Source: Alphaproteobacteria bacterium (lineage in GTDB: Bacteria > Pseudomonadota > Alphaproteobacteria > Bin95). Taken from it: a DNA stretch of 64,000 nucleotides. Position 1 is the stretch's first letter, and every line of letters starts with the position of its first letter. This document shows positions 5,433-35,656 of the stretch, piece after piece. The stretch spans positions 7,874 to 71,873 of the forward strand of contig JAJDYL010000103.1 in assembly GCA_022825195.1 (NCBI GenBank), written 5' to 3'. The notes beneath the pieces are model-generated. The model was not told the DNA's origin. It searched no databases and saw only the letters and a program-made list of their open reading frames with translations. The position numbers were made by a program, and so were the translations under genes.

Positions 5433-7058
5433 TCACAGTGCCGGCGCGCCTTGCATCGAAACCGTATCCGCCTCCATCGCCTCGGCCATGCGGCGCAGTT
5501 CGGCTTTCTGGATCTTGGTGCCGTTGGCGCTGTAGGTGACGGGGAAGGCGTCTATGGCGGCGGCTCGGACCGGGACCTTGTAGTTGGCCATGGTCTCGCG
5601 GCACCAGGCGAGAAGCGCGGCTTCGTCGTAGAAGGGTTTCCCCGCCGGGCGCACGAAGGCGAAGGCGCGGGGCCCTCGCGGGGTGGCGACGCCGACGACC
5701 TGGCAGCCGGCGACCGAAGGATGGGTCTCGATATGCGCCTCGATCTCGCTCGGGGCCGTAAGGAAGCCGGCGAGTCGCAGCGTGTCGCCCATGCGCGCCT
5801 CATAGATGAAGCTGCCGTCGGCGCGCATCCGCCCGGCATCCCCCGTGCGCAGGAAGCCGTCTTCGGTCATTGCCGCCGCTGTCGCTTCCGGGTTGCTCTC
5901 ATAGCGGAGGAACAGGCTGGGGCAGCGCATTTCGACTTCGCCCGAGACGCCCGGCGGGCAGAGTTCGCCGGTCTCGACATTGCGCACCCGGACGGCGGCT
6001 TCGGGCGCCACCGGATAGCCGCCGCCGGCAAGGCGGTCCTCCAGCGGCGCGTCGATCTTCTGGACGGCCATCAGCGCGCCCACCTCGCTCATGCCGTAAA
6101 GGCCGATCAGCGGCACGCCGCGCGCGAGCGTCCGAGCCGCGAAATCCTCCAGGGTCGGGTTGAACAGGGCGTAGCCGCACAATCTGAGGCTGGGGAAGGG
6201 GATCGGTTCCTCCCGCAGGGCCAGCATGCCGGCATACATGTCGTCCGTGCCCATGAAATGGGTGACCTTGTGGCGGCGCACGGCCTCGGCGGCCTCGCCC
6301 GGCGTGAACAGCGGCGCCAGCACGTTCGGCGCGCCCGCGGCCGCCGTCGCCATCATGGTCGAGAAGCCGAACACCCCGCAAAGCGGCGTCGCCTGGTAGC
6401 TCGCCGCGCCCGCCCGGTCCCAGCCGAAGGCGGCAACGCAGTCGCGGGCATGGCGCGTGACCGGCGCCTGTCCATGCAGCACGAATTTGGGTTTCGAGGT
6501 CGTGCCGGAGGTGGTGAAGACGTTGCAGGGGTCGTCCGGCGTTGCGCGGTCCCCGGCCATCGGGAGCGCCTCGAACAGTGTCCGCACCGCCGTCGCGGGC
6601 TTGCCGGCCACCCGCTCCGGAACCGCAGCCTCGCCCTCGTCGTAGACCAGCACCCGCTCAAGGCCGGACAACGCCTCGTAACCGATCTCCGCCAGCAGGC
6701 CGGCAAAGTCGATATCCTTGAAGCCCGGCCACATGGCGAGCGCCTTCGCGCCCGACCGCGACAGGATGTCCGCGACCTCCAGCGCCCGGAAGCGGGTGTT
6801 GACCGCGACGGCGACTGCGCCGAGGCGTCCGAGCGCGAAGTAGAGCGCGAGCCAGGCCGGCACGTTCGGCAACCAGAGCGCGACCTTGTCGCCGCGCCCG
6901 ATTCCGAGACCCGCCAATGCGGATGCGGCCCGGCGCGACCGGTCGAGCAGGTCGCCGTAGCTCCAGCTCCCGCCGCCATAGAGCAGCGCCGGCGCGTCCC
7001 CGGCTTCCGCGGCGACGCGCTCAAGCAGCGCGGAGAGGGTCTCCCGCTTCCCGGTCAT
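5433..7058 (-). CDS. AMP-dependent synthetase/ligase (acyl-CoA synthetase family)
   Basis: AMP-binding motif TSGTTSKPK and C-terminal lysine region; start overlaps the upstream stop by 4 nt. Confidence 0.9.
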   Translation of the reverse strand: MTGKRETLSALLERVAAEAGDAPALLYGGGSWSYGDLLDRSRRAASALAGLGIGRGDKVALWLPNVPAWLALYFALGRLGAVAVAVNTRFRALEVADILSRSGAKALAMWPGFKDIDFAGLLAEIGYEALSGLERVLVYDEGEAAVPERVAGKPATAVRTLFEALPMAGDRATPDDPCNVFTTSGTTSKPKFVLHGQAPVTRHARDCVAAFGWDRAGAASYQATPLCGVFGFSTMMATAAAGAPNVLAPLFTPGEAAEAVRRHKVTHFMGTDDMYAGMLALREEPIPFPSLRLCGYALFNPTLEDFAARTLARGVPLIGLYGMSEVGALMAVQKIDAPLEDRLAGGGYPVAPEAAVRVRNVETGELCPPGVSGEVEMRCPSLFLRYESNPEATAAAMTEDGFLRTGDAGRMRADGSFIYEARMGDTLRLAGFLTAPSEIEAHIETHPSVAGCQVVGVATPRGPRAFAFVRPAGKPFYDEAALLAWCRETMANYKVPVRAAAIDAFPVTYSANGTKIQKAELRRMAEAMEADTVSMQGAPAL

Positions 7059-8083
7059 GCCCGGACGAAACGGAAGACGTCGTCGGGTCCCCGCTCGCGC
7101 TCGACACGGCCCCCATGCCAGAGATTGTGGAGATGGGCGATGGCTTCGCCGATGGCGAAGGACTGCTGGTGCAGGTCGAGCGGGCGGTGGAAGAAGACCG
7201 GCAGCAGGTCGATGGCGTGTTGCGGTTCCGCCAGCGCTTCGCAGCCGTCGTCGAGGCGGACCCGGTGGTGGTCGCGAAGCTGGGCCAGCCGCTCATGCAG
7301 GCCATAGAACGGGCGGTCGTGGCTGCAGAGCGTGAAGGTGTCGTCGGGCAGGTGGGCAAAGGCGCGGGTGCTGTCCAGGAAGTGTTGCAGCGGGTCGCCG
7401 TCGGGCTCGACGAAATGCACGGACACATTGGTCGTGATGCGCGGCAGCACCTGGTCGCCGGAGATCAGCAGCTTCGACTCCGGGCAGGCGAGGCAGACAT
7501 GCTCCGGCGAATGGCCCGAGCCGATGATCGCCTGCCATTCCCGCTCGCCGATGCGGATGCGGTCGCCATGCTGGATGCGGTGATAGACGATGGGCGGGCG
7601 GACCACGTTCTGGGCGTAGAAATTCCCGCGCCCGCGCATGGCGTCCACCGTCGAGGTGGCCATGCCGTTGCGCCGCCAGAAGCGCAGCATCTCCTCCATG
7701 TTGCGTTCTCTGGCGTCGAAGGCGAAATGCGACCAGAGCCATTCCGAAAGGCTCATCCAGAGCTCGGCTTCGGGGAAGCGCGTCAGCAGCCATTGCGCGA
7801 GGCCCATATGGTCCGGGTGGAAATGCGTGACGAGCACGCGGCGCACCGGCCGCCCGGCCAGCAGCGTCCGGATCAGCGTCTCCCAGATGTCGCGGACACC
7901 ATCCTTGTTGAGCCCGCAATCGACGACGGTCCAGCCGTCGCCGTCCTCCAGCAGGTATAGGTTGATGTGGTCGAGAACGAAGGGCAGCGGCATCCGCACC
8001 CACCAGATCCCCTCCGCCACCTGCCGCGCCGCGCCTTCCGGCGGCGGCTCGTCATAGGGGTACTCGACGACGACGGCGTTCAC
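7055..8083 (-). CDS. MBL-fold metallo-hydrolase
   Basis: HFHPDHMG metal-binding motif. Start trimmed to the GTG (VNAVVVEYPYDEPP…) that overlaps the ubiK stop as GTGA; the ORF-track 5' extension is low-complexity. Confidence 0.75.
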   Translation of the reverse strand: MNAVVVEYPYDEPPPEGAARQVAEGIWWVRMPLPFVLDHINLYLLEDGDGWTVVDCGLNKDGVRDIWETLIRTLLAGRPVRRVLVTHFHPDHMGLAQWLLTRFPEAELWMSLSEWLWSHFAFDARERNMEEMLRFWRRNGMATSTVDAMRGRGNFYAQNVVRPPIVYHRIQHGDRIRIGEREWQAIIGSGHSPEHVCLACPESKLLISGDQVLPRITTNVSVHFVEPDGDPLQHFLDSTRAFAHLPDDTFTLCSHDRPFYGLHERLAQLRDHHRVRLDDGCEALAEPQHAIDLLPVFFHRPLDLHQQSFAIGEAIAHLHNLWHGGRVERERGPDDVFRFVRA

Positions 8084-19563: not shown

Positions 19564-20772
19564 TCAGAGAGCGCCGGCCTGCTTCAGGTCCGCCACTTCC
19601 GCTGGCGACATGTCCAGCAGTTCGCCCAGCACCGCTTCGCTGTGCTCGCCGAGCAGCGGCGCCCGCGCCACCTCCATCGTCTCGCCGCCGAAGCGCACCG
19701 GCCACGCCGGCACCACCACCGCGCCCCGGTCCGGATGCTCGACGGTCTGCATGATGCCCCGCCGGTGCATGTCCTCGCTCGAGATCAGGTCCTTGATGTC
19801 GAACACCGCGCCGGCGGGCACGCCGGCGCTGCCGATGGCCTCCATCACCTCCTGCTTCGTGCGCTCGCGCGTCCAGGCCGCGAGGTTCTCCTCGATCTCC
19901 GCCTTGTGCTCGATGCGCTTGTGTCCGTTGCAGAAGCGCGGATCGGCCAGCATGTCCTCGCGCCCGATGGCCTTGCAGACGCGCTCCCAATGGACCGTCA
20001 GGTCGCGGGCGACGAAGATGAAGCAATAGTCGTTCGGCCCGCCGCCCTTGCAGGGGAAGAGCCCGCCCGGCGCGCCCGAAGCCACGGAGTTGCCGAGCCG
20101 CGGCGCCGGTTCCTGCATCATCGGCTGGCGCGAGAAGGTGACCCGGCAGTAGTTCGTCATCGCGTCCTGCATCGCGACCTGGAGATGCTGGCCGCGCCCG
20201 GTGCGCTCGCGCTGGAAGAGCGCGGAGAGGATCGAGACGCACATGTGCAGGCCGGTGCCGGTATCGCCGATGGTGGCGCCGGGGCGGATCGGCACCCCGT
20301 CCGGCATGCCGGTGATGCTCATCACGCCGCCCGTGGCCTGCGCGATCATGTCGAAGGAGAGGTATTTGGCGTAGGGGCCGTCGGTGGCGAAGCCCTTGAC
20401 CTGCGCGAAGACGAGGCGCGGGTTGAGCTTCTGCAGCTCGTCCCAGCCGAAGCCCAGCCGCTCGATGGCGCCCGGCGCGAAATTCTCGATCAGCACGTCG
20501 GCCCTGGCGATCAGGCGGCGCAACAGGTCCTTGCCGCTCTCCTCCTTGAGGTTGCAGGTGATCGAGCGCTTGTTGCAGTTGAGCAGGATGAAATAGAGCG
20601 AATCCATGTCCGGCCGCTCGGATATGGCGAGCCGGCCCTGGTCGCCGCGCCGGGGCTCCTCGACCTTGATGACATTGGCGCCGTGCCACGCCAGCGCCTC
20701 CGTGCAGGACGGGCCTGCCTCGAATTGGGTCAGGTCGAGAACGGTAATGCCCGCCAGCGGCGCATCGCCCAT
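19564..20772 (-). CDS. CoA-transferase family III (CaiB/BaiF/Frc-like)
   Basis: …ITVLDLTQFEAGPSCTEALAWHGANVIKVE…; trimmed to MGDAPLAG…, with a GGAGGA RBS. Confidence 0.9.
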   Translation of the reverse strand: MGDAPLAGITVLDLTQFEAGPSCTEALAWHGANVIKVEEPRRGDQGRLAISERPDMDSLYFILLNCNKRSITCNLKEESGKDLLRRLIARADVLIENFAPGAIERLGFGWDELQKLNPRLVFAQVKGFATDGPYAKYLSFDMIAQATGGVMSITGMPDGVPIRPGATIGDTGTGLHMCVSILSALFQRERTGRGQHLQVAMQDAMTNYCRVTFSRQPMMQEPAPRLGNSVASGAPGGLFPCKGGGPNDYCFIFVARDLTVHWERVCKAIGREDMLADPRFCNGHKRIEHKAEIEENLAAWTRERTKQEVMEAIGSAGVPAGAVFDIKDLISSEDMHRRGIMQTVEHPDRGAVVVPAWPVRFGGETMEVARAPLLGEHSEAVLGELLDMSPAEVADLKQAGAL

Positions 20773-22892: not shown

Positions 22893-24103
22893 CGGCGCCT
22901 GTCGACAGCTTCTCCCGCGATGCGCGGGTCATCGGCCTCGTGGCCGCCGGGCACACCATGAGCCACATGTTCGTGTTCATGCTGCTGCCGCTTTCGGTGC
23001 GCATGCAGGACGAGCTGGGATTCAGCTATCTGGAGGTCGGCATCCTGGCGGGCGCCTTCTCGGTCGGCGCGGCGGTCTGCCAGACGGGCGTCGGATTCGT
23101 CGTGGACCGCATCGGCGGGCGGGTGCCGCTCATCATGGGCGTGGCCGTGCTCTCGGCGGCCGTCATGGGGTTCGGGCTGGTCTCCTCCTTCTGGGCCATG
23201 CTGCCGCTCGCGGTCATCGGCGGCGTCGCCAACTCCGTCTTCCACCCCGCCGACTACGCCATCCTCTCGGCTTCCGTCGCCGAGCACCGCATGGGGCGCG
23301 CCTTCTCCATCCATGCCGTCAGCGGCAATACCGGCTGGATCCTCGCGCTGCTGGGCCCCGACCTTGCCGATATCGTCGGCCTGAAGAACGTCTTCCTCGT
23401 GGCGGGCGGCATCGGGGTCGTCGTCTCCTTCGCCCTCCTGCTCCAGTCCCGGCATCTGGAAAGCGCCGAGGGCAGGGCAAGGCGGCGCGAGCAGGGCGGC
23501 TCGACCTCGGACGGGATCGCGCTCCTGCTGACGGTGCCGGTCATCCTGCTGTTCCTGTTCCAGATGTTCCATTCCATGTCGCTCGGCGGCATCCGCACCT
23601 TCGGCATCCCGGCGCTCCACGAATTGCGCGGCTTCGAGGACACGGTGCTGGCGAAGGCGCTGATCGCCTACATGGTGGCGGCCTCGGTCGGCAATCTCGC
23701 GGGCGGCTGGCTGGTGGACCGCACCGGGCGGCCGCAACTCGTGTTCTTCGGCGCCATCGGCACGGTCTTCCTCACGGTCAACATCATCGGCGCGGTTCCG
23801 CTGCCGCTCTACGGCATCGTGGCCCTGCTGCTCGTCGCCGGGGTCATGCACGGCGCGATCATGCCGACCCGGGACCTGCTGGTGCGCCGCATCTCGCCGC
23901 CGGGGCAGATGGGCAAGGTGTTCGGCTTCACCTCCACCGGGCTGTCCATCGGCGGCTTCATGGCGCCGGTCCTGTTCGGCTGGGTGATGGACATGGGCGA
24001 CCCGCGCTGGGTGTTCTTCGGCAGTGCGGCCGTCATGCTGCTCGCCGTCGCCACCTTCGTCGAAACCAGCCGCAATGCGGGCAGGGCAAGGGCAACGGCA
24101 TGA
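22889..24103 (+). CDS. MFS transporter
   Basis: 12-TM hydropathy pattern and MFS motifs; 4-nt overlap. Confidence 0.9.
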   Translation: MTAPVDSFSRDARVIGLVAAGHTMSHMFVFMLLPLSVRMQDELGFSYLEVGILAGAFSVGAAVCQTGVGFVVDRIGGRVPLIMGVAVLSAAVMGFGLVSSFWAMLPLAVIGGVANSVFHPADYAILSASVAEHRMGRAFSIHAVSGNTGWILALLGPDLADIVGLKNVFLVAGGIGVVVSFALLLQSRHLESAEGRARRREQGGSTSDGIALLLTVPVILLFLFQMFHSMSLGGIRTFGIPALHELRGFEDTVLAKALIAYMVAASVGNLAGGWLVDRTGRPQLVFFGAIGTVFLTVNIIGAVPLPLYGIVALLLVAGVMHGAIMPTRDLLVRRISPPGQMGKVFGFTSTGLSIGGFMAPVLFGWVMDMGDPRWVFFGSAAVMLLAVATFVETSRNAGRARATA

Positions 24104-24987
24104 AACAGCTTCCGACAGGCGACGAACTTTTCCTCGACCATGTGGGCTATTTCCTCGCCGACCTCGACGGGGCGGCGGCGCGGTTCGAACGGCTGGGCTT
24201 CACCGTGTCGCCCGTCAACATCCACTACAACAGCGCCGGCGGCGAACTCGTGCGGTCGGGCACGGCCAACCGCCTGATCACCTTCGAGGCGGGCTATATC
24301 GAGGCGCTGGGCCAGGTCGCGGACACGCCGCTCGGCGCGGAACTCGCCGCCGGCCTCGCGCGCTATGAGGGGCTGCACCTGCTCGCGCTCGCGCACGGGC
24401 GGGTCGAGGCGCACGATGTGGGCGGCACGGACATGCGCCCGACGGTCTTCCTGCGCCGCCCGCTGGAGGACGGGCGCATCGTGCGCGCGACCGTGCGCCG
24501 GGCGACGGCGGGGGCGATGCCGGAAGGCCGGGTGCAGCTGCTCACCCACGAGACGCCGGAGCTGATCTGGCTGCCGGGCATGGACCGCCACGCCAACGCC
24601 GCCCGCGCGCTTACCGGCTTCCTGCAGACCGTCGCCGACCCCGAAGAGGCGGCGGCGCGCTACGCCCGGTTCGCCAACCGCCCCGCGCGCAGGCTCGGCT
24701 CCGTCTTCGAGATCGCGCTGGACCGGGGCCGCTTTGCGCTTGCCGGGCCGGACGCGCTCGCCGCGCTGTTGCCTGCCGGAGAGCACCCGCCGCCGCCCTT
24801 CGGCGCCGCCGTCGGCATCGAAAGCGCCGACCTCGACCGCACGCGCTTCCTTCTTGCGAACGCCGGCATTACCGTCCACGCGCGGCCGGACCGCCTGCTG
24901 GTCCCGCCGCCGGAGGGACTGGGCGCCTGGATAGACTTCCACCGCCCCGACGCCCCGCCGCTCTGGGCCGCAGGGCCGGATTTGTAA
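24100..24987 (+). CDS. VOC (glyoxalase/bleomycin-resistance/dioxygenase) family protein
   Basis: …LFLDHVGYFLADLDGAAARFERLGF…; 4-nt overlap with the MFS gene. Confidence 0.7.
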   Translation: MKQLPTGDELFLDHVGYFLADLDGAAARFERLGFTVSPVNIHYNSAGGELVRSGTANRLITFEAGYIEALGQVADTPLGAELAAGLARYEGLHLLALAHGRVEAHDVGGTDMRPTVFLRRPLEDGRIVRATVRRATAGAMPEGRVQLLTHETPELIWLPGMDRHANAARALTGFLQTVADPEEAAARYARFANRPARRLGSVFEIALDRGRFALAGPDALAALLPAGEHPPPPFGAAVGIESADLDRTRFLLANAGITVHARPDRLLVPPPEGLGAWIDFHRPDAPPLWAAGPDL

Positions 24988-26332: not shown

Positions 26333-26956
26333 TCAGACCTCCTGCGCCTTGAGGCCGCGCTGCACGGCGGGCCGCGCGGTCATGATGTCGAACCAGCGCT
26401 TCACATTGGGGAAGCGGTCGAAGTCGAGGTCGATCCACTCATGGCGGCAGGCCCAGGGATAGACGGCGATATCCGCGATCGAATAGTCGTCGCAGAGGAA
26501 GTCCCGCCCCTCCAGCCGCCGGTCCATGACGCCGTAGAGCCGGTAGGTCTCCTGGGTGTAGCGCTCGATGCCGTAGGGCACCTCCACCTTGGCGGCGCGG
26601 CGGAAATGGTGCGCCTGGCCCTGCATCGGCCCGACGCCGCCCATCTGCCACATCAGCCATTGCAGCACCTCGAGGCGCCGTCGCGGCTCCGTCGGCCAGA
26701 GGGGGCTGCCGGTCTTCTCGGCGAGATAGATCAGGATGGCGCCGCTCTCGAACAGCGAGACCGGCCCGCCGCCGGGGCCGTCGGGGTCGACGATGGCCGG
26801 GATGCGGTTGTTGGGGCTGATCTTCAGGAAGTCGGGATGGAACTGCTCGTCCTTGCCGATATTGACCGGGTGCCACTGGTATTCCAGCCCCAGCTCCTCC
26901 AGCATGATCGAAATCTTGCGCCCGTTGGACGTGTTCCAGCTATGGAGATGAATCAT
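26333..26956 (-). CDS. glutathione S-transferase, YfcG/Nu-class-like
   Basis: Close to E. coli YfcG throughout (…ISPNNRIPAIVDP…SLFESGAILIYLAEKTG…IERY…ETYRLY…). Confidence 0.9.
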   Translation of the reverse strand: MIHLHSWNTSNGRKISIMLEELGLEYQWHPVNIGKDEQFHPDFLKISPNNRIPAIVDPDGPGGGPVSLFESGAILIYLAEKTGSPLWPTEPRRRLEVLQWLMWQMGGVGPMQGQAHHFRRAAKVEVPYGIERYTQETYRLYGVMDRRLEGRDFLCDDYSIADIAVYPWACRHEWIDLDFDRFPNVKRWFDIMTARPAVQRGLKAQEV

Positions 26957-27424: not shown

Positions 27425-28531
27425 TTACCCGCCCGCCGGGCCGTTGGCGAGCAGGGCGTCGATGCGCCCCGGCGCCATGCCGGTGGCGCGGACGGAGGCA
27501 GTGATCGAGTCCCAGGCACCATCCGCAAGCGGCAGCCCGTTGGCGCGGCGCTCGGCGGCGGTGATCCGCTCCGGGTCGCCCGGCACCAGCACCGGCGCGT
27601 CCGGGTCGGCGGGCGCGGCGGAGAGCAGCCACTCGACATAGTCCTCGACCGCGCGCGCAAACGCCTCGCCCGGTCCGAAGGCGTCCGGGACCGCGTAGAG
27701 CGAGAACATGCCGTTGGCGAAGGGCCGGTCGGTCGGCCCGCAGACACCGTTGCCGGTGAGCGCGCCGCCCAGCAGCTCGCACATCAGCGCCAGGCCGGAG
27801 CCCTTGTGCTCGCCCATGGCGCGGATGGCGCCCTTGCCGTCGCGGAACTGCGGCGGCGCGTCCGGGCCGGCGGTGCCGTAGAGCGCGGCGGGGTCGTTCG
27901 TCCGCTGTCCCTCGCCGTCGATCAGTGCATCGCCGGGCACCGGCTTGCCGCCCTTGGCCGCGACCAGCACCTTGCCTTCCGCGACCACGGAGGTCGCGAA
28001 ATCCAGCACCAGCGGCTCGCGGTCCTTGCGGGGCACGGCGACGCAGAAGGGCGCGGTCGAGAACCGCCGCTCGCGCGCGCCATAGGGGGCGACCAGCACG
28101 CTGCCGCGCGCATTGACGAAATGGACCGAGACCAGCCCTTCTTCGGCCGCCACCCCGGCCCATTCGCCGATACGGCCGAGATGGCCGGTATTGCGCAGCG
28201 CCACCACGCCGACGCCGCCAGCGCGGGCCTTCCCGATGCCGCAGCGCACCGCCTGCGGCCCGATGGTCTGGCCGAAGCCGAGCCGCCCGTCGAGCACCGC
28301 CATCGCGCCCGTGTCCGACACGACCTCCACTTCGCGGTCGGCCACCACCCGCCCGTCGCGCAGCATGTCCAGATAGCGCGGCACGCGCACGATGCCGTGG
28401 CTGTCGTGGCCGGCGAGGTTGGCCGACACCAGCGAGGCGGCGATGCGCGCGCCCTCGGCGTCGGAGCAACCCGCCGCAGCGAAGGCTTCGCCGATCAGGG
28501 ATTCGGCGGTTTCGACCGGTATGCGGGGCAC
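27425..28531 (-). CDS. Ldh family oxidoreductase (malate/L-lactate dehydrogenase family 2; pyrroline/piperideine-2-carboxylate reductase-like)
   Basis: …SANLAGHDSHGI…; start trimmed to a GTG (VPRIPVETAESL…) with GAGGAG 5 nt upstream. Confidence 0.8.
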   Translation of the reverse strand: MPRIPVETAESLIGEAFAAAGCSDAEGARIAASLVSANLAGHDSHGIVRVPRYLDMLRDGRVVADREVEVVSDTGAMAVLDGRLGFGQTIGPQAVRCGIGKARAGGVGVVALRNTGHLGRIGEWAGVAAEEGLVSVHFVNARGSVLVAPYGARERRFSTAPFCVAVPRKDREPLVLDFATSVVAEGKVLVAAKGGKPVPGDALIDGEGQRTNDPAALYGTAGPDAPPQFRDGKGAIRAMGEHKGSGLALMCELLGGALTGNGVCGPTDRPFANGMFSLYAVPDAFGPGEAFARAVEDYVEWLLSAAPADPDAPVLVPGDPERITAAERRANGLPLADGAWDSITASVRATGMAPGRIDALLANGPAGG

Positions 28532-28541
28532 CGGGTTCTCC

Positions 28542-29576
28542 TCAGAGTGTCGGGAACAGCACTCCGAAGACGATACCGGAGAGGACCGCGCCGGCAAATC
28601 CGAGTCCGACATAGGCCGCAAAGACAGGACGCCGCACCAGCGCATAGACGGCCGTCATGGCCGGGATGCAGCTCACCGCGCCCGCCACCATGAAGGCCAT
28701 GCCGGCGCCGTTGGTCATGCCCTGCCCGATGAGGCCCGCGACCAGCGCCGGGGCGGCATAGCCGTTGAGATAGGCGGGCGCGCCCACCAGCGCCGCGATG
28801 ACGATCGGCAGCAGGCCCTCGCCGCCGACCGCGCCCGCAATCGCCTCGGCCGGCAGCCAGGCCAGCATCAGGCTCTCCAGCAGGTAGGCCAGCGTCAGCC
28901 ATTTGAGCAGGAAGAGCCCGTTCTCCCGCGCCTCCGCGCCGAACAGCCGCCGGCGCTTCGCATCGCCCCAGAAGCGCCATTGCGGCGCGCCGCCGAAAGC
29001 CGATGGCGCGCCGCAGCAACCGCCCGACTCACGCGGCTTCACCGGGTTGGCGAAGAAGCCGGCACGGACGGCGGCCTGCACGGCAAACCCGCCCATCAGC
29101 CCGACGCCGACGGCGGCGACGGTCTTGCCGACGGCGAACGGCCAGCCGAGCGCGCCGGCGGTGATGAGGAAGGCCGCCGGGTCGATCAGCGGCGAGGACA
29201 GCCAGAACGCCATCACCGCCGAGACCGGCGTGCCGAGCGCGAGCAGCGCGGCGATGAACGGGATCACCTCGCAGGAGCAGAAGGGCGCCAGGCCCCCGAC
29301 CAGCGCCGCCAGCACGATCATCCGCGTCTCGCGCCCGACGAATGCGCGCGCCACCAGCGTATCGGCCCCCGTCGCCTTCAGCACCGCCACCGCCAGCACC
29401 GCGAAGGCGATGAAGGGCAGGGTGTGCAGGAGCGCATCCAGGGTGAAGGAGACGGACGGGCGGAACTGCGCCGGGTCGAGCAGCGCCACCGCGGCCAGGA
29501 TGACGAGCACGGCCAGCCAGACGCGGCCGACGTTCGGCAGGTCCAGGCGTCTCAGGGTCGCGGCGAGGGCGGCCAT
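28542..29576 (-). CDS. DUF318/ArsP-like permease
   Basis: Multi-TM protein with the conserved …APFCSCEVIPF… (TPFcSC-type) motif. Confidence 0.75.
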   Translation of the reverse strand: MAALAATLRRLDLPNVGRVWLAVLVILAAVALLDPAQFRPSVSFTLDALLHTLPFIAFAVLAVAVLKATGADTLVARAFVGRETRMIVLAALVGGLAPFCSCEVIPFIAALLALGTPVSAVMAFWLSSPLIDPAAFLITAGALGWPFAVGKTVAAVGVGLMGGFAVQAAVRAGFFANPVKPRESGGCCGAPSAFGGAPQWRFWGDAKRRRLFGAEARENGLFLLKWLTLAYLLESLMLAWLPAEAIAGAVGGEGLLPIVIAALVGAPAYLNGYAAPALVAGLIGQGMTNGAGMAFMVAGAVSCIPAMTAVYALVRRPVFAAYVGLGFAGAVLSGIVFGVLFPTL

Positions 29577-29606
29577 CAGCGCTGGCCTCTATTTCTATAT
29601 TTCTAA
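29577..29606. promoter_or_regulatory. AT-rich spacer with inverted repeat ATATTTC-N10-GAAATAT between arsR and the permease
   Basis: Read directly from ctATTTCTATATTTCtaactaaatcGAAATATgc. Confidence 0.45.
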
Positions 29607-29930
29607 CTAAATCGAAATATGCTGATGATGGCACGATCCGTCAAGATGGTCTGCGCAACATTCCTTCAGCAGGAAACCCAGTGTTTCGTTCATCGCCTCG
29701 GCATTGGCGCGGCAGATGAGCGTGGTGCCGCGCCGCTCGCGCTGCATCAGGCCGCAATCCGCCAGCCGGCGCAGATGGTGCGAGAGCGTGGAGCGCGGAA
29801 CGCCCGTGCGCTCATGGATGTCGTTGACGGCAAGTCCCCCTTCGCCGGCCCGCACCACATGGCGGAACACGGCAAGCCGGGTCTCGTTGCCGAGCACTTC
29901 CAGCCGGACGGCGATCTCTCCAAGCGTCAT
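29607..29930 (-). CDS. arsR: ArsR/SmtB-family metalloregulator
   Basis: Winged HTH (…LGNETRLAVFRHVV…RSTLSHHLRRLADCGL…) with a C-terminal Cys/His cluster. Confidence 0.85.
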   Translation of the reverse strand: MTLGEIAVRLEVLGNETRLAVFRHVVRAGEGGLAVNDIHERTGVPRSTLSHHLRRLADCGLMQRERRGTTLICRANAEAMNETLGFLLKECCADHLDGSCHHQHISI

Positions 29931-30047
29931 GGGGCCGGAGTATAGAGCGGAGACGGTCTTTTTCGCGCCGTAAATCGGGCCGCCGCTTTCGTCTCCCTTG
30001 CATGCCTCCGGTTCGTTGCAGCGCCTGTCGTCGCAACGGCGGGCGCG

Positions 30048-31250
30048 TCACCCGCTCTCGCCGCCTATCGCCCCGGCGGCCTCCAGTTCCGCGATGACCT
30101 CGGCCGCGAAGCCGTATTCCCGGAGCACGTCGCGGTTGTGCTGGCCCAGCAGCGGCGGCGGCGTGCGCACGGTCCGGCCCTCGAAGGCATCCATGCGGAT
30201 CGGGTTCGAGAGCAGCTTCAGCGCGCCCGCGACCGGGTGGTCGATCTCCTCGACCATGCCCTGCTGGCGGACCTGCGGGTCGGCGAACACCCTGTCGAGG
30301 GAATAGACCGGGCCGGTGGGGATGCCGCCTTCCATCAGCTCCTTCGTCCAGTCGATGGCGTCGCGGGTCCGGAACCGGGCGTTCAGGAGCTCGCGGAGCT
30401 CGTCCCGGTTCGCCCGGCGAAGGTCGTTCGTGCTGTATTTCTCCTCCGCCAGCAGCTCCTCGCAGCCAAGCACCCGGCAGAGCCACTGCCAGTGCTTGTC
30501 GCTCGGCGTGGCGACGTTGAGCGGCCCGTCCTTCGCTTCGAAGAGGCCGTAGGGATAGATCGTCGGGTGGTCGTTGCCGGCCTGGCCGGGCACCTCGCCG
30601 TTCGAGAGGTAGCGCTGGCCCTGCACGCTCAGCAGGCCGACGAGCGCCGCCAGCAGCGAGGTCTCCACCCGCTGGCCTTTGCCGGTCACATGCCGCTGGG
30701 CGATGGCGGCGGTGATGGCGAGCGCGCACCACATGCCGGCGGTGAAGTCGCCGATGGGAACGCCGTAGCGGGTGGGCGCGCCGCCGGGCTCGCCCGTCAG
30801 GCTCATCATGCCGGACATGCCCTGCGCGATCTGGTCGAGGCCGGGCCAGCTCCCGTAGGGCCCGGAGCTGCCCATGCCCGTGATGCTGCCGTAGATGACG
30901 CCGGGATTGGCCCGGCTGACGGCCTCGTAGTCGAGGCCCATCGCCGCCGTCGTCCCCGGCTTGAAATTCTCCACCACGACATCGGCCCCGGCCGCCATCC
31001 GGCGCACTGCTTCCAGGCCCGCCTCGTTGCGGAAATCGACGCCGAGGCCCCGCTTGTTGCGGTTGATGGAGAGGTAATAGACGCCGATATCGTGGTCGTA
31101 GGGGCCCCAGAGCCGCGTCAGGTCCCCGTTCGGCAGGGGCTCCACCTTCACCACGTCGGCGCCGAAATCGGCGAGGATCATGGTGCAGAACGGGCCGGCG
31201 GCGGCGCGCGTCAGGTCGAGTACGCGGACGGTCTCAAGCGGCAGCGGCAT
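30048..31250 (-). CDS. CoA-transferase family III (CaiB/BaiF-like)
   Basis: MPLPLETVRVLDLTRAAAGPFCTMILADFGADVVKVE…. Confidence 0.9.
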   Translation of the reverse strand: MPLPLETVRVLDLTRAAAGPFCTMILADFGADVVKVEPLPNGDLTRLWGPYDHDIGVYYLSINRNKRGLGVDFRNEAGLEAVRRMAAGADVVVENFKPGTTAAMGLDYEAVSRANPGVIYGSITGMGSSGPYGSWPGLDQIAQGMSGMMSLTGEPGGAPTRYGVPIGDFTAGMWCALAITAAIAQRHVTGKGQRVETSLLAALVGLLSVQGQRYLSNGEVPGQAGNDHPTIYPYGLFEAKDGPLNVATPSDKHWQWLCRVLGCEELLAEEKYSTNDLRRANRDELRELLNARFRTRDAIDWTKELMEGGIPTGPVYSLDRVFADPQVRQQGMVEEIDHPVAGALKLLSNPIRMDAFEGRTVRTPPPLLGQHNRDVLREYGFAAEVIAELEAAGAIGGESG

Positions 31251-31277
31251 GGCGCGTCTCCGGTCGGTTGCGCGGCC

Positions 31278-32225
31278 TCAACCGTATTTCGCCGCATAGC
31301 CGCCGTCGGCCTGCGGTTCGACGAAATGGATGAGCAGGCCGCCGCCGAAATTCGAGGGATGGACGAAGCCGATCAGCGCGCCGCGCCCGCCGGGCCGGCC
31401 TTCGAGGTCGATCATGCGCCAGCCGTCATCGGCGAGCTTCGGCAGCAGCGCGTCGATATCGCGCGTGGCGAAGGCGACATGCGCCAGGCCCGGCCCCCGT
31501 CGCGCCACGAATTTCGCGATCGCGCTCTGGTCGCCCTTGGTATTGCCCTTCTGCTCGCCGAGCCCGTCCCTGGGCTTCAGCGCCGGGTCGTAGTCCATCA
31601 GCATTTCGAGCTCGCAGTCGCCGATGTTGATGAAGACGTCGCGCAGGCCGCCCAGGATCTCCGTCGGGCGCGAATGGTAGATCGCGCCATATTTGTCGGA
31701 GACGAAACTCTCCGTCACGTTGCGGACCTCGATGTCGGTCTGCGTGCTCTCGACGGGACAGCCGAGATTGTCCGAGAAGACGCGCACCGTGGCGTCATTG
31801 TCATCGGTCGCGATGCCGAGATGGTCGATCTTGTAGGCCGGACCGTCGGCCGAGGGGATGTCCAGCGGTTCGACGAAACGGGTGCGGATGCCGACGGTCT
31901 CCCGCGGATCGACGGCGGCGAACTGCCTGCCGTCCGGCCCCGTGCCCTCGACCGTCACCGTCAGGCCGTGCCGGGCGGCAGCGGCGGCGGGGTCCGGCGC
32001 GGCCAGCGCCATATGGTGGACGCCCGGGAATTGCGGCTCATCCAGATAGGGGTCGTAAGGGTCGAACAGCGCCACGGCCGACCTGCCGACGCCGAAGAAC
32101 GGAACGGTGCCGCCGCCGAGCGCGACATCGGTCCGCTCCAGGCCGAGCGAGCCGCCGAGGAACCGGCAGGCGGCCTCCACGTCGCGGGCCGCCAGCGCCA
32201 GGTAGTTGAGGGCATAGCCGGCCAT
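31278..32225 (-). CDS. two-domain VOC family protein (extradiol-dioxygenase/epimerase-like)
   Basis: Two glyoxalase-type modules (…GVHHMALAA… and …IDHLGIAT…). Confidence 0.75.
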   Translation of the reverse strand: MAGYALNYLALAARDVEAACRFLGGSLGLERTDVALGGGTVPFFGVGRSAVALFDPYDPYLDEPQFPGVHHMALAAPDPAAAAARHGLTVTVEGTGPDGRQFAAVDPRETVGIRTRFVEPLDIPSADGPAYKIDHLGIATDDNDATVRVFSDNLGCPVESTQTDIEVRNVTESFVSDKYGAIYHSRPTEILGGLRDVFINIGDCELEMLMDYDPALKPRDGLGEQKGNTKGDQSAIAKFVARRGPGLAHVAFATRDIDALLPKLADDGWRMIDLEGRPGGRGALIGFVHPSNFGGGLLIHFVEPQADGGYAAKYG

Positions 32226-32228
32226 GGG

Positions 32229-33170
32229 TCAGACCTCCTCGCGCTGGACGAAATGCATCAGCACGCCGCCGATCATGGTGGGGTGCATGAAGCCGATGAG
32301 CGCGCGGCGGGAGCCCGGCCGGCCCACCCTGTCGATGGTCCGGTGGCCTGCGGCCCGGAGCTTTCCCAGCGATCCGGCCACGTCCGGCGTCTTGAAGGCG
32401 ATGTGGTGCAGCCCCGCGCCGCGCGCCGCGATGTAGCGCGCGATGGCGCTGCGGTCGCCGCGCGTGTTGCCGGCCGCATCGTGCCGCGCGGCATCGACTT
32501 CGTTGCCCGTCGTCAGGTCCTGGATGAACTCCAGCTCCGTGTCGCCGACGGTGATGAAGGTCACGCGCATGCTGCCGACCAGACGGGACGGCCGCGTGTG
32601 GAAAATGTAGTTGTAGGTGTCCGAGGTGAAATTCTCCGAGACCGTCTCGGTTTCGCTGTCGGTCTGCTGGCTCTCATAGACGCAGCCCAGCCTGTCGATG
32701 AAGGCCTCTCGCGCGGCCCGGTTGTCGGCGGATGCGACGCCGAGATGGTCGATCCGCTCGATCATTTCGGACGAACCGGGGGCCGTGCCGAGCGGCGCCG
32801 CAAGGCGTGTGCGCACCCCGGCGGTCGCTTCCGGCGAAAGCGCCACCTGCGGCCCGCCGCCGAGGCCCTCCGAGACGGCGCCCGTCATCGTGATGCCGGA
32901 CTCCCGGGCCGCAGCCTCGGGGTCGGCGGCGGCAATCGCCATATGGTGGACGCCCTTCTTCGCGTCCGGCCCGAGGAACGGATCGTCCGGGCGGAAGAGG
33001 GCGAGCGCCGAACGTCCGACCGAGACGACCGGCACGCTCGACCGCCCGCAGGCGAAGTCCTGCCGCGGCAGGTTGAAATCCTTCTCGAAGATCGCCGCGC
33101 TGGCCTCCGGCTCATCGACGGCGAGCGCCACATAGGCAAGGTCGGGTGCGGTCATGCGTCCTCCACGCAT
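32229..33170 (-). CDS. two-domain VOC family protein, tandem paralogue of 31278..32225
   Basis: Same architecture and motifs (…GVHHMAIAA…, …IDHLGVAS…); 3-nt spacing to its paralogue. Confidence 0.75.
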   Translation of the reverse strand: MRGGRMTAPDLAYVALAVDEPEASAAIFEKDFNLPRQDFACGRSSVPVVSVGRSALALFRPDDPFLGPDAKKGVHHMAIAAADPEAAARESGITMTGAVSEGLGGGPQVALSPEATAGVRTRLAAPLGTAPGSSEMIERIDHLGVASADNRAAREAFIDRLGCVYESQQTDSETETVSENFTSDTYNYIFHTRPSRLVGSMRVTFITVGDTELEFIQDLTTGNEVDAARHDAAGNTRGDRSAIARYIAARGAGLHHIAFKTPDVAGSLGKLRAAGHRTIDRVGRPGSRRALIGFMHPTMIGGVLMHFVQREEV

Positions 33171-33185
33171 CTGTTGAGACAGGCC

Positions 33186-33962
33186 TCAGAGGATCTCCAG
33201 CTCCACCGTGCCCAGCGCCTCGTGGGTATAGACGGCGCGGTTGCCGGCTTCCAGGAACTGCGTCGGGATGATGGAGCCCGTCATGACGATCTCGCCGGCG
33301 CGGAGCGGCCGGCCGCGCGAAATGGCGTTGTTGGCGAGCCAGGCCAGCGGTTCGAGCGGGTGGCCCATCGCGTCGCCGCCCCGGCCCTCGCCGACCAGCC
33401 TGCCGTCGATCTCCAGGCTGCCGCGCGCGCCCACAAGGTCGAGCGCCTGCCAGTCCGCGACCTCGGGCCCGACCACCACGCCGCCGTTCCAGGCATTGTC
33501 GGCGATGAGCTCGAAGGCGTTCATGTTGTTGTAGTCGGCCTCGCGGTCGTCGATGAGCTCGAAGGCGGCCGCCACCGCGCCGACATGGGGCGCCACGCTC
33601 TCCCGCGTCCAGGGCCGGCCAGTGTCCGGCAGGTCGCCGCCGAGGCGCACCATCGCCTCGCATTCGAGCCCGATGCGCATCAGCGCCGAGCGCAGCAGCC
33701 TGGCCGGCGAGCGATGGACGCGCTCGGCGAAGATCGCGCCGGCGCAGGGCTGGTCGATGCCGGGCACGACCCGCCGCATGGCGGCGGAGGTGAGCGCCAC
33801 CTTCCAGCCGGCGACGGGCAGGCCGAGGCCGGCGACCAGCGCGGCCTGCACCCGGTAGGCATCGTCCTCGGAGCCGGGCGCGATGCCGGCGGGCAGGCGC
33901 TCGAAGCGCCGGCCCTCGCGGTGTCCGGCGAGCAGAAAGTCCGCCGCGGCCTCGACGCTCAC
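33186..33962 (-). CDS. 2-keto-4-pentenoate hydratase / 2-oxohepta-3-ene-1,7-dioate hydratase family (MhpD/HpcG-like)
   Basis: …GWKVALTS…; start trimmed to the GTG that overlaps the upstream stop as GTGA. Confidence 0.7.
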   Translation of the reverse strand: MSVEAAADFLLAGHREGRRFERLPAGIAPGSEDDAYRVQAALVAGLGLPVAGWKVALTSAAMRRVVPGIDQPCAGAIFAERVHRSPARLLRSALMRIGLECEAMVRLGGDLPDTGRPWTRESVAPHVGAVAAAFELIDDREADYNNMNAFELIADNAWNGGVVVGPEVADWQALDLVGARGSLEIDGRLVGEGRGGDAMGHPLEPLAWLANNAISRGRPLRAGEIVMTGSIIPTQFLEAGNRAVYTHEALGTVELEIL

Positions 33963-34360
33963 ACGCCCATCTCCTCGAACACCTTCGAGGCTTCCCGGAA
34001 CGCCTCGACGGCGGCAGGCACGCCCGCATAGATGCCGACCTGCAGGAACACCTCGGCGATCTCTTCCTTGGTGACGCCGTTGTTGAGCGCGCCGCGCGTG
34101 TGCAGGCGGAGTTCGTGGGTGCGGCCGAGGGCAGCCAGCATGGTCAGGTTCATGATGCTGCGGGTCTTGTCCGGCAGGCCGTCGCGGCACCACACCGTGC
34201 CCCAGCAATATTCGGTGACGAATTGCTGGAGCTGGTGGGCGAAATCGTCCTCCGCGCCCCGGGCGATGGAGGGGCCGACATAGTCTTCGCCGAGTACCCG
34301 GCGGCGGGCTTCCAGGCCCTGCTCGAAGCCGGGCGTGCGGTTATAGCTGCTGAGGTCCAT
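33959..34360 (-). CDS. carboxymuconolactone decarboxylase (AhpD-like) family protein
   Basis: …FVTEYCWGTVWCRDGL…; trimmed to MDLSSYNRTPGF…. Confidence 0.8.
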   Translation of the reverse strand: MDLSSYNRTPGFEQGLEARRRVLGEDYVGPSIARGAEDDFAHQLQQFVTEYCWGTVWCRDGLPDKTRSIMNLTMLAALGRTHELRLHTRGALNNGVTKEEIAEVFLQVGIYAGVPAAVEAFREASKVFEEMGV

Positions 34361-34538
34361 GGGTTCGCTTCCGTTTCGGTCCCGCCCAGCAAAGCCCATT
34401 CGCGCTCCGCGCTCAAGCGCGGCCTTCAGGCGTTCCCGCAGGAAAGGAGACATTCGCAAATTGCGTCGCGCACCGTCCGGGACGACGGCGAGGCCATGCC
34501 GGATCGGGGAGGGGGCCGGCGGCGGGAAGACGCGCCGT

Positions 34539-34871
34539 TCAGCCCACGGGGCAGAAATCGTAGGTGCCGATACCCTGCACGATCAGGAAGCGGGCGCGGG
34601 CGCCGTCCTTTCCGGTGACGCGGTGCGCGGTCATTCTCGGCACCGCGCAGCTCTCGCCGACCTCCAGCAGGTAACGCGCCCTCGGCGCGCGGGTTTCCAC
34701 CGAGAGCGTGCCTTCGAGGCAGTAGAAGGTGTCCTCGATCTCGCTGTGATAGTGCCAGGGCACTTCCTGCCCTTCCGCGAGCGTCAGGATGCCGACCCGC
34801 AGCGTGTCGGTTTCGGCCACCGTCTCGCGGCGCTCGATGACATAGGGCCGTGCGTCGGGGTCTGTCATAGT
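34539..34871 (-). CDS. cupin domain protein
   Basis: …WHYHSEIEDTFYCLEGTLSVE…; trimmed to MTDPDARPYV…. Confidence 0.7.
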   Translation of the reverse strand, partial: TMTDPDARPYVIERRETVAETDTLRVGILTLAEGQEVPWHYHSEIEDTFYCLEGTLSVETRAPRARYLLEVGESCAVPRMTAHRVTGKDGARARFLIVQGIGTYDFCPVG

Positions 34872-34982: not shown

Positions 34983-35423
34983 TTACGCACCGCTCGCCGA
35001 AATATCGGCGAGATGCAGGGTACGGTCCGCAAGGTAAGGATGGGCGCGCACCTTGTCGTGGAAACGCGCGTCGGCGGTCACGACCGGATATTGCGTATGG
35101 ATCGCGAGCGCGAGGTAGAAGCAGTCGTAAACCGGATGGTCCAGATCGCTCGCCAGCCGCGTTGCCGCCGCCATGAGGTCCGGCATCGACAGGGGCGTCG
35201 AAACCGGAGCTACCCGCAAGGTCTCCACCGCCTCTGCGAGGTCGGAGGCCGCAATATCGCCGCGCCGACGCATGGCCCAGAGCGCATTGGCAGCCTCGGC
35301 GAACAGGAGCGGCGGCGCGGCAAGCGTCGAGTCGCCGTCCAGCAGGGCAGCCGCCTTGTCCGAAAGAACTTCCTCGACCAGCCATTTCACCGCGACGCTG
35401 GCATCGACGACATAGCCGGTCAC
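34983..35423 (-). CDS. vapC: type II TA toxin, VapC family (PIN domain)
   Basis: MTGYVVDASVAVKWL… PIN acidic-residue pattern; ATGA-overlapped by the upstream antitoxin. Confidence 0.85.
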   Translation of the reverse strand: MTGYVVDASVAVKWLVEEVLSDKAAALLDGDSTLAAPPLLFAEAANALWAMRRRGDIAASDLAEAVETLRVAPVSTPLSMPDLMAAATRLASDLDHPVYDCFYLALAIHTQYPVVTADARFHDKVRAHPYLADRTLHLADISASGA

Positions 35424-35656
35424 GCCATGCTTTCCCGGTCCCGGTCCGCTCGTATCGTAGCAGTGCTATCGACCGAGGAGCGAAGCCGCCGCCGCAACGC
35501 AGCTGCGCGTGCGGCAAACTCTTCTTCCGTTCCCAGCAACGTTTCCCGCAGGATGGCCCGATGCTCGGCTTCAGCGGACCGTCCATTGGACGCTGCGCGC
35601 TGCTTCAGCGCGCCGACGACCTCCTCGCTCAGCTTTCTTACGGTGAGTTGGGCCAT
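35420..35656 (-). CDS. vapB: VapB/FitA-like ribbon-helix-helix antitoxin
   Basis: MAQLTVRKLSEEVVGALKQRAASNGRSAEAEHRAILRETL. Confidence 0.75.
   Translation of the reverse strand: MAQLTVRKLSEEVVGALKQRAASNGRSAEAEHRAILRETLLGTEEEFAARAAALRRRLRSSVDSTATIRADRDRESMA

Follow-up and report, generated by a model that had tools for sequence, protein, structure and literature searches.

A two-domain VOC family linked to CoA-transferases and a non-canonical crotonase, and its rearranged form in a predicted composite operon of an alphaproteobacterium

In a 64,000-nt stretch of DNA from an alphaproteobacterium of the GTDB lineage Bin95 (GenBank GCA_022825195.1, contig JAJDYL010000103.1, positions 7,874–71,873), hereafter the window, five neighbouring minus-strand genes encode a family III (CaiB/BaiF) CoA-transferase, two paralogous two-domain proteins of the vicinal oxygen chelate superfamily (VOC1 and VOC2), a protein of the fumarylacetoacetate hydrolase (FAH) superfamily and a protein of the carboxymuconolactone decarboxylase (CMD) family. 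Comparison with related loci reveals that the conserved unit is a family III CoA-transferase or acyl-CoA ligase, a two-domain VOC in one to three copies, and a non-canonical crotonase; it is this CoA-transferase–VOC–crotonase module, with its altered VOC metal site and altered crotonase, and not the five-gene operon, that is the object of interest. The stretch is best read as a composite operon of three separable blocks (the core, a CMD–FAH accessory pair, and cupin and VapBC insertions) belonging neither to a meta-cleavage pathway nor to any described pathway, and the window as a rearranged form of the module, with the transferase downstream, the VOC gene duplicated, the crotonase missing and the CMD–FAH pair joined on.

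We scanned 185,579 species-representative genomes (one per species) with two exact peptide patterns, which divergent members in isolates may escape, and kept 80 loci, all 80 of them from metagenome-assembled genomes (marine, sponge-type, lake, groundwater and glacier-stream samples) and none from an isolate. Neighbourhood counts were made over 85 non-redundant loci, for which all open reading frames (ORFs) up to 7 kb away from the VOC genes were clustered and the recurrent clusters annotated. A family III CoA-transferase recurs in 43 loci and is orthologous to that of the window (at least 50% identity) in 34, where it adjoins the VOC genes and is 52–97% identical, VOC-linked transferases of other classes still sharing 52–62% identity with it; among the 40 loci with full flanks, 19 have the orthologous transferase within 7 kb. 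Proteins of the enoyl-CoA hydratase (crotonase) family occur in 34 loci and an AMP-dependent acyl-CoA ligase in 11. The remaining recurrent neighbours are the TctC solute-binding protein (19 loci), GST (18), TauD (15), SDR (13), GFA, directly upstream of VOC2 (10), MmgE/PrpD (7), hydantoinase A/B (6–7), class II aldolase (6), an AhpD-like CMD of the AhpD/peroxidase-related subfamily, other than that of the window CMD (6), and a DctP-family (TRAP-type) binding protein (6), with GntR or LysR regulators recurring too. GFA, MmgE/PrpD, TauD, class II aldolase and the AhpD-like CMD were looked for in the rest of the window, and none was present. A side observation concerns five marine alphaproteobacterial loci (L006, L014, L015, L017 and L026), which share the arrangement MmgE/PrpD–AhpD-like CMD–GFA–VOC2–VOC1–(crotonase)–TauD–luciferase-like monooxygenase, the CMD being in this case a 193-aa protein of the peroxidase-related type TIGR01926. 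A search of the literature found no described cluster of VOC, CoA-transferase and enoyl-CoA hydratase; a paper on SAR202 that describes CaiB expansions offers general background only.

In 25 loci the crotonase gene lies directly downstream of VOC, and these 25 crotonases constitute a distinct subfamily. They keep the first catalytic Glu (GGGxE) but have Gln or Tyr in place of the second (P[QY]x[RK]LG…GW), unlike the unlinked crotonases of the same loci, which have the canonical Pro-Glu. Among the best 120 homologues the second-Glu position could be read in 105, and it was occupied in all 105 by another residue (Gln in 57, Tyr in 43 and His in 5). One locus (L080) consists of a stand-alone three-gene operon, CoA-transferase–VOC–crotonase, with overlapping genes and unrelated flanks. 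The association also held in a reciprocal test seeded with three crotonase homologues (47–50% identity, long contigs): a VOC gene of 309–312 aa overlaps the crotonase start in all three, preceded in two by an overlapping CoA-transferase gene, and the third has an AMP-dependent ligase and a class II aldolase divergently upstream. In the window itself, a two-domain VOC with the His/Glu/His/His residues described below adjoins an orthologous CoA-transferase, with no crotonase of this subfamily alongside.

The C-terminal half of the VOC proteins matches methylmalonyl-CoA epimerase (MMCE; PDB 6WF6, 1JC5 and 3RMU) with E-values of 4e-13 for a single sequence and 1e-20 for the family profile, over β1 and β5–β8 and including the GxHHIAF and FxHP motifs. 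Moreover, in an AlphaFold model built from 61 family sequences (pLDDT 92, pTM 0.89) the C-terminal domain superposes on MMCE at 1.9 Å with 36% identity. The metal ligands of MMCE are the β1 His, β5 His and β8 Glu, the last, a ligand also in human MCEE, being described as strictly conserved throughout the VOC enzymes (PMC6525113). Of these, the family studied here retains both histidines, H135 at β1 and H249 at β5, and the β8 Glu is replaced, in two independent alignments to MMCE chains, by His300, a residue without variation in family sets of 61 and 130 sequences; E303, close by, varies, homologues having Q, A, K or D there. H135, E207, H249 and H300 are invariant or nearly so in both paralogues and in single-copy forms, as are E166, E172, H184 and H289, several of which lie inside a conserved, family-specific insertion of ~50 residues. 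Thus, the ligand check that the sequence-only reading had proposed for separating dioxygenase from epimerase (His/His/Glu) returned neither expected pattern. At the corresponding ligand positions the N-terminal domain has Tyr8, His71 and Arg116 and so cannot form the usual metal site. Its similarity to the C-terminal domain is marginal (E 0.003 pairwise; not significant against PDB), and an internal duplication of an MMCE-like unit is a plausible origin of the two-domain protein.

These data bear on two alternative assignments. A reading of VOC1 and VOC2 as ordinary methylmalonyl-CoA or ethylmalonyl-CoA epimerases agrees with the name 'methylmalonyl-CoA epimerase' that JGI gives to some homologues, with the best sequence and domain-level structure matches, which are to MMCE, and with genomic partners that are CoA-ester enzymes. 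We nevertheless regard it as very improbable, since VOC1 and VOC2 score 86.9 and 79.8 bits against TIGR03081 (MMCE), below its cut-off of 114.95, differ from MMCE in their two fused domains, the ~50-residue insertion, the invariant His in place of the β8 Glu and their occurrence as adjacent paralogue pairs, and have no propionyl-CoA carboxylase or mutase nearby. Equally hard to credit is a glyoxalase-I-like reaction, in which a 2-oxoaldehyde, as its hemithioacetal with CoA or glutathione, would be isomerised by VOC to a 2-hydroxyacyl thioester that the CoA-transferase would use without hydrolysis. The first three VOC ligand positions (His/Glu/His) presumably correspond to those of E. coli glyoxalase I, and both GST and GFA, a family whose enzymes form thiol-aldehyde adducts, recur near VOC as counted above, but VOC lacks the β8 Glu that serves as the base of glyoxalase I, and neither GFA nor GST is part of the minimal operons.

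The VOC family is small and strongly conserved: of 1.84 billion clusters, 53 representatives match at E ≤ 1e-30 and 209 at E ≤ 1e-10, and identity between Alpha- and Betaproteobacteria is 75–80%; a search of 72,556 plasmids gave only ordinary MMCE and no family member. The 85 loci comprise 44 with a VOC pair, three with a triple and 38 with a single copy. In all 44 pairs the VOC2 orthologue precedes the VOC1 orthologue by ~3 nt, an order that is never reversed although the loci span Alphaproteobacteria, Burkholderiales and Gammaproteobacteria, and since the ordered orthologous pair occurs in all three lineages the duplication would be older than they are. With VOC1 and VOC2 only 46% identical, the two genes are thus, on sequence grounds, the product of an ancient duplication and not of a recent tandem one as had been supposed. 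In the three loci with a triple (L017, L021 and L023; ~8100–10940 in L017 and L023) the middle copy is 64–68% identical to VOC1.

The CoA-transferase matches PF02515 over the full length of the model (414.5 bits, positions 1–366 of 366), and its best PDB match is SUGCT, a succinate-hydroxymethylglutarate CoA-transferase (9br6, 1e-89). Against NCBIfam it resembles most closely the succinate-glutarate CoA-transferases (321.6 bits against a cut-off of 750) and succinyl-CoA:mesaconate CoA-transferases (296.6 against 700), less than half of either equivalog cut-off being reached. This likeness suggests a C4–C6 dicarboxylate as the acceptor. A second CoA-transferase in the window (19564–20760, minus strand) is only 33% identical to the VOC-linked one; both keep an IGD(F/T)xxG motif that, at motif level, resembles the GDSNTG motif of Frc, an enzyme whose catalytic Asp is Asp169. 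The window also has an AMP-dependent ligase (5433–7292, minus strand) and a Glyoxalase_3 protein (24100–24987, plus strand) adjoining an MFS transporter, and CoA-activating and VOC enzymes seem abundant in this genome.

All proteins of the stretch fall in known superfamilies without being orthologous to any characterised enzyme. The FAH protein scores 99 bits against MhpD of NCBIfam (cut-off 350) and 75–99 bits against the hydratase equivalogs as a group (cut-offs 350–409). It aligns lengthwise with E. coli MhpD (1sv6, 6e-23), its GwKvaLT, lECEa and fEliddR segments lying opposite GrKvgLT, iEAEi and lEvvgsR, columns that we take to be the Glu-x-Glu…Glu metal triad and catalytic Lys. The CMD protein matches PF02627 (88 bits) and, over the full length of the model, the PcaC model TIGR02425 (144 bits, just below the cut-off of 155.7), with 4g9q and 2af7 as PDB matches. 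It lacks the CxxC motif of AhpD (only YCWGTVWC is present) and has no match to the AhpD core domain TIGR00778, so that the description 'AhpD-like' of the sequence-only reading gives way to a PcaC-type assignment.

The same reading treated the five genes, possibly together with a cupin gene upstream, as one linear pathway acting on an unsaturated diacid, in which CMD and hydratase steps would be followed by VOC and CoA-transferase or the reverse. The co-directional genes with a GTGA overlap and gaps of 3–30 nt speak for such a pathway, as do the conservation of the five-gene order in four relatives (L007, L009, L010 and L047), a distant FAH homologue 5–6 kb from VOC in two loci (L014 and L017) and the other CMD-family proteins near VOC in six. 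Nonetheless, we judge it unlikely, because a neighbourhood search found the set confined to close relatives, and even among these it comes apart. CMD–FAH adjoins the VOC pair only in L007–L011, L013, L047 and L058, whose DNA is 88–92% identical to that of the window, and in three equally close loci (L001, L012 and L032) it is absent, similarity beginning exactly at the VOC2 start with other genes upstream. The CoA-transferase gene is cleanly missing from L058 and L011; in the former (~88% DNA identity), window positions 30019–31266 (~1.25 kb) are replaced by ~27 nt (L058 10959–10987) that join VOC1 to the ArsR gene. A spacer of ~850 nt between FAH and VOC2 in L013 (1205–1889) holds two ORFs that, as translated, resemble a RelE/HigB-type toxin and an XRE-HTH antitoxin, so that an insertion of this kind splits the set there. 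The locus thus shows presence/absence polymorphism of single genes inside one narrow clade, and this divides the five genes into three blocks, CMD–FAH, VOC2–VOC1 and the CoA-transferase.

The CMD–FAH pair in particular behaves as an accessory block acquired only in this narrow clade, linked to the core by position only. CMD copies (95–99% identical) are confined to the close relatives in which FAH is also present. Identity among FAH homologues drops from 85–95% straight to ~50%, and three homologues at the latter level (long contigs) adjoin a small glyoxalase, a luciferase-type oxygenase or nothing relevant, with no CMD neighbour and no two-domain VOC gene; the CMDs that recur near VOC elsewhere are, as noted, of the AhpD/peroxidase-related subfamily. 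As for the cupin, its gene is real (Cupin_2, 4e-11), but no relative carries it: no tblastn match at E ≤ 1e-3 was found in any of 86 related loci, and blastn similarity to L007, L009, L011, L047 and L058 stops before it, at window positions 34419–34432. Its proposed membership of the operon is therefore not borne out. The neighbouring VapBC pair likewise has no counterpart in any related locus and for that reason looks like a local insertion; toxin–antitoxin pairs were seen at module borders in two genomes, that of the window and L013.

Table 1. Features of the stretch and its upstream border (window coordinates)
Feature	Position	Strand	Remarks
Family III (CaiB/BaiF) CoA-transferase	30048..31250	-	400 aa; PF02515
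VOC1, two-domain VOC protein	31278..32225	-	315 aa; C-terminal domain MMCE-like
VOC2, two-domain VOC protein, paralogue of VOC1	32229..33155	-	308 aa
MhpD/HpcG-like FAH-superfamily protein (hydratase or decarboxylase type)	33186..33962	-	258 aa; PF01557
PcaC-type CMD-family protein	33959..34351	-	130 aa; PF02627
5' leader and putative promoter region	34352..34423	-	Last stretch common with close relatives
Small cupin	34539..34868	-	Cupin_2, 4e-11; outside the unit
VapC (PIN) toxin and FitA-like RHH antitoxin, overlapping genes	34983-35656	-	Between dapF and cupin

The gene models are given in Table 1. With a G+C content of ~70% the window contains many spurious ORFs, from which the five minus-strand genes are distinguished by a third-position G+C content of 0.88–0.93 and clear Pfam matches; their reality and common direction, and their assignment to the families CoA_transf_3, Glyoxalase/VOC (two two-domain proteins), FAA_hydrolase (MhpD-like) and CMD, all stand as first read. 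VOC2 starts at ATG 33155, preceded by GGAGGA, the same 308-aa product being called in a relative, and FAH at GTG 33962, preceded by GAGGAG; the CMD gene most likely starts at ATG 34351, giving a product that spans the whole PcaC model. CMD and FAH meet in a GTGA overlap, read from the sequence as translational coupling, and VOC2 and VOC1 are 3 nt apart, as the description 'packed with GTGA and 3-nt junctions' has it, but this describes two of the four junctions, the FAH/VOC2 and VOC1/CoA-transferase gaps being 30 and 27 nt. No sigma-70-like match was found in the leader, so a promoter there is presumed, and Rfam reported no RNA family in the 26–38 kb part of the window.

The upstream flank encodes VapBC, DapF, an MtaB-like protein and FtsY. 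Directly downstream of the CoA-transferase lie genes for an ArsR-family regulator and an ArsP_1-type permease (28542–29930, minus strand), and beyond them those for an Ldh_2-family dehydrogenase (27425–28645) and a GST (26333–26956), a block that is syntenic in L007, L009 and L058. A GST is also found near VOC in Burkholderiales and Acetobacteraceae, but at 26–30% identity.

For the VOC proteins we consider that enolate chemistry on the CoA thioester of a carboxylic or dicarboxylic acid, a statement made at the level of reaction class, has an even chance of being correct. An MMCE-like module with a dedicated transferase or ligase, a crotonase and, in part of the loci, TctC (19) or DctP-family (6) binding proteins points to an imported acid, probably a dicarboxylate, that would be loaded onto CoA by the CoA-transferase. 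The VOC proteins, as fused and duplicated MMCE-like derivatives, would then bind the acyl-CoA through a divalent metal in a putative site of His135, Glu207, His249 and His300. Proton transfer at the carbon adjoining the thioester would follow, more likely as a double-bond or tautomeric isomerisation than as an epimerisation. In MMCE the β8 Glu doubles as one of two catalytic bases, and because one of these bases is lost here a one-base isomerisation is favoured over a two-base epimerisation. Both paralogues are probably active, since all conserved active-site residues are kept in both, and they may act as a heteromer or differ in stereo- or substrate specificity. In most other lineages the product would pass to the crotonase without the second catalytic Glu, which could be a hydratase, decarboxylase, hydrolase or lyase, and CoA could be recycled by the transferase, as the minimal operon contains nothing else. 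CMD–FAH may process a related 2-oxo-enoate or lactone substrate.

Several observations weigh against this interpretation. About half of the loci with full flanks have neither an orthologous transferase nor a crotonase within 7 kb, and a tblastn search of all 64 kb of the window gave no match to the VOC-linked crotonase, which may leave the local pathway incomplete or make it a different one. Neither the VOC family nor the crotonase subfamily has a characterised member, so that the reaction type is read from homology, and replacement of the β8 Glu, both ligand and base in MMCE, means that the VOC family is not a standard epimerase and could carry out different chemistry. Co-transcription of the genes is likewise presumed, and a promoter and terminator scan of the minus strand gave nothing above chance. 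Finally, the best full-length fold matches of the VOC model are hydroxymandelate synthase, HPPD and extradiol dioxygenases, all O2-dependent enzymes, and the two-domain fold with its active site in the C-terminal domain is as in the extradiol and HPPD–hydroxymandelate synthase type. This would fit VOC proteins of that type whose substrate is a 2-oxo acid or diol, perhaps formed by the MhpD-like protein, with the CoA-transferase activating the resulting acid. We find such a role quite improbable, given that the profile match to MMCE is far stronger than that to HPPD (1e-20 against 1e-5), that TIGR01263 (HPPD) gives 15.9 and 22.7 bits for the two VOC proteins against a cut-off of 277, that identity to these oxygenases is only 12–17%, that the 2-His-1-Glu triad which defines them is not kept, and that the tightest genomic partners are enzymes of CoA-ester metabolism and not of an aromatic pathway (no aldolase, dehydrogenase or hydrolase). 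The analogy with meta-cleavage extradiol enzymes in the sequence-only reading does not hold up for the same reasons.

Comparison with known systems places the genes outside the described routes. Of a canonical meta-cleavage operon only the hydratase-like gene is present, with no semialdehyde hydrolase or dehydrogenase, aldolase or acetaldehyde dehydrogenase in the cluster; thus, although FAH aligns with MhpD of the meta-cleavage MhpD/HpcG type and CMD falls just short of PcaC, the partner enzymes of the meta-cleavage and β-ketoadipate pathways are missing, and FAH homologues elsewhere are orphans in varied contexts. In E. coli, CaiB–CaiD (carnitine) and YgfH–YgfG (succinate to propionate) each combine a family III or related CoA-transferase with a crotonase-fold enzyme to convert a free acid with no net use of CoA. 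The CoA-transferase–VOC–crotonase operons follow the same logic, but the E. coli systems have no VOC, and the crotonase here is distinct (Gln, Tyr or His at the second-Glu position) and missing from the window. The Pseudomonas cluster PA0878–0886 for itaconate and methylsuccinate also combines a dicarboxylate CoA-transferase, MmgE/PrpD and a VOC protein (PMC12290011, PMC9875883), and MmgE/PrpD recurs near the VOC pair in seven loci, a likeness at superfamily level only. As a relative beyond that level PA0880 was ruled out, being a 127-aa single-domain 2-hydroxyparaconate lactonase, and the MaoC-type hydratase (Ich) and HpcH-type lyase (Ccl) of the itaconate route (Ict–Ich–Ccl) are absent from the window flanks and from the recurrent neighbours. 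With these enzymes of the itaconate route missing and no protein reaching an NCBIfam equivalog cut-off, we found no orthology of the genes to a single known pathway; the earlier idea of an undescribed route for a CoA-activated unsaturated diacid is partly sustained in its general sense, as a CoA-dependent route not yet described, the VOC–CoA-transferase link being real, and fails in its five-gene particulars.

More tentatively, and with rather more doubt than certainty, we can envisage that the VOC with its His/Glu/His/His site and the crotonase together carry out on a CoA thioester a reaction new to both superfamilies, as a self-contained, CoA-cycling converter for a dissolved organic acid that is found only in uncultured marine, sponge-associated, freshwater and groundwater bacteria, the window having a rearranged and duplicated version. 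The lesson of the window is that tight gene packing alone does not define a pathway. What recurs is a small, strongly conserved VOC family tied to one orthogroup of CoA-transferases and to a subfamily of crotonases that lack the second Glu, a combination that marks an unassigned piece of CoA-ester metabolism in hosts thought to degrade unusual dissolved organic acids. Once its substrate is assigned, a recurrent operon could be annotated and two well-studied superfamilies would gain a reaction type.

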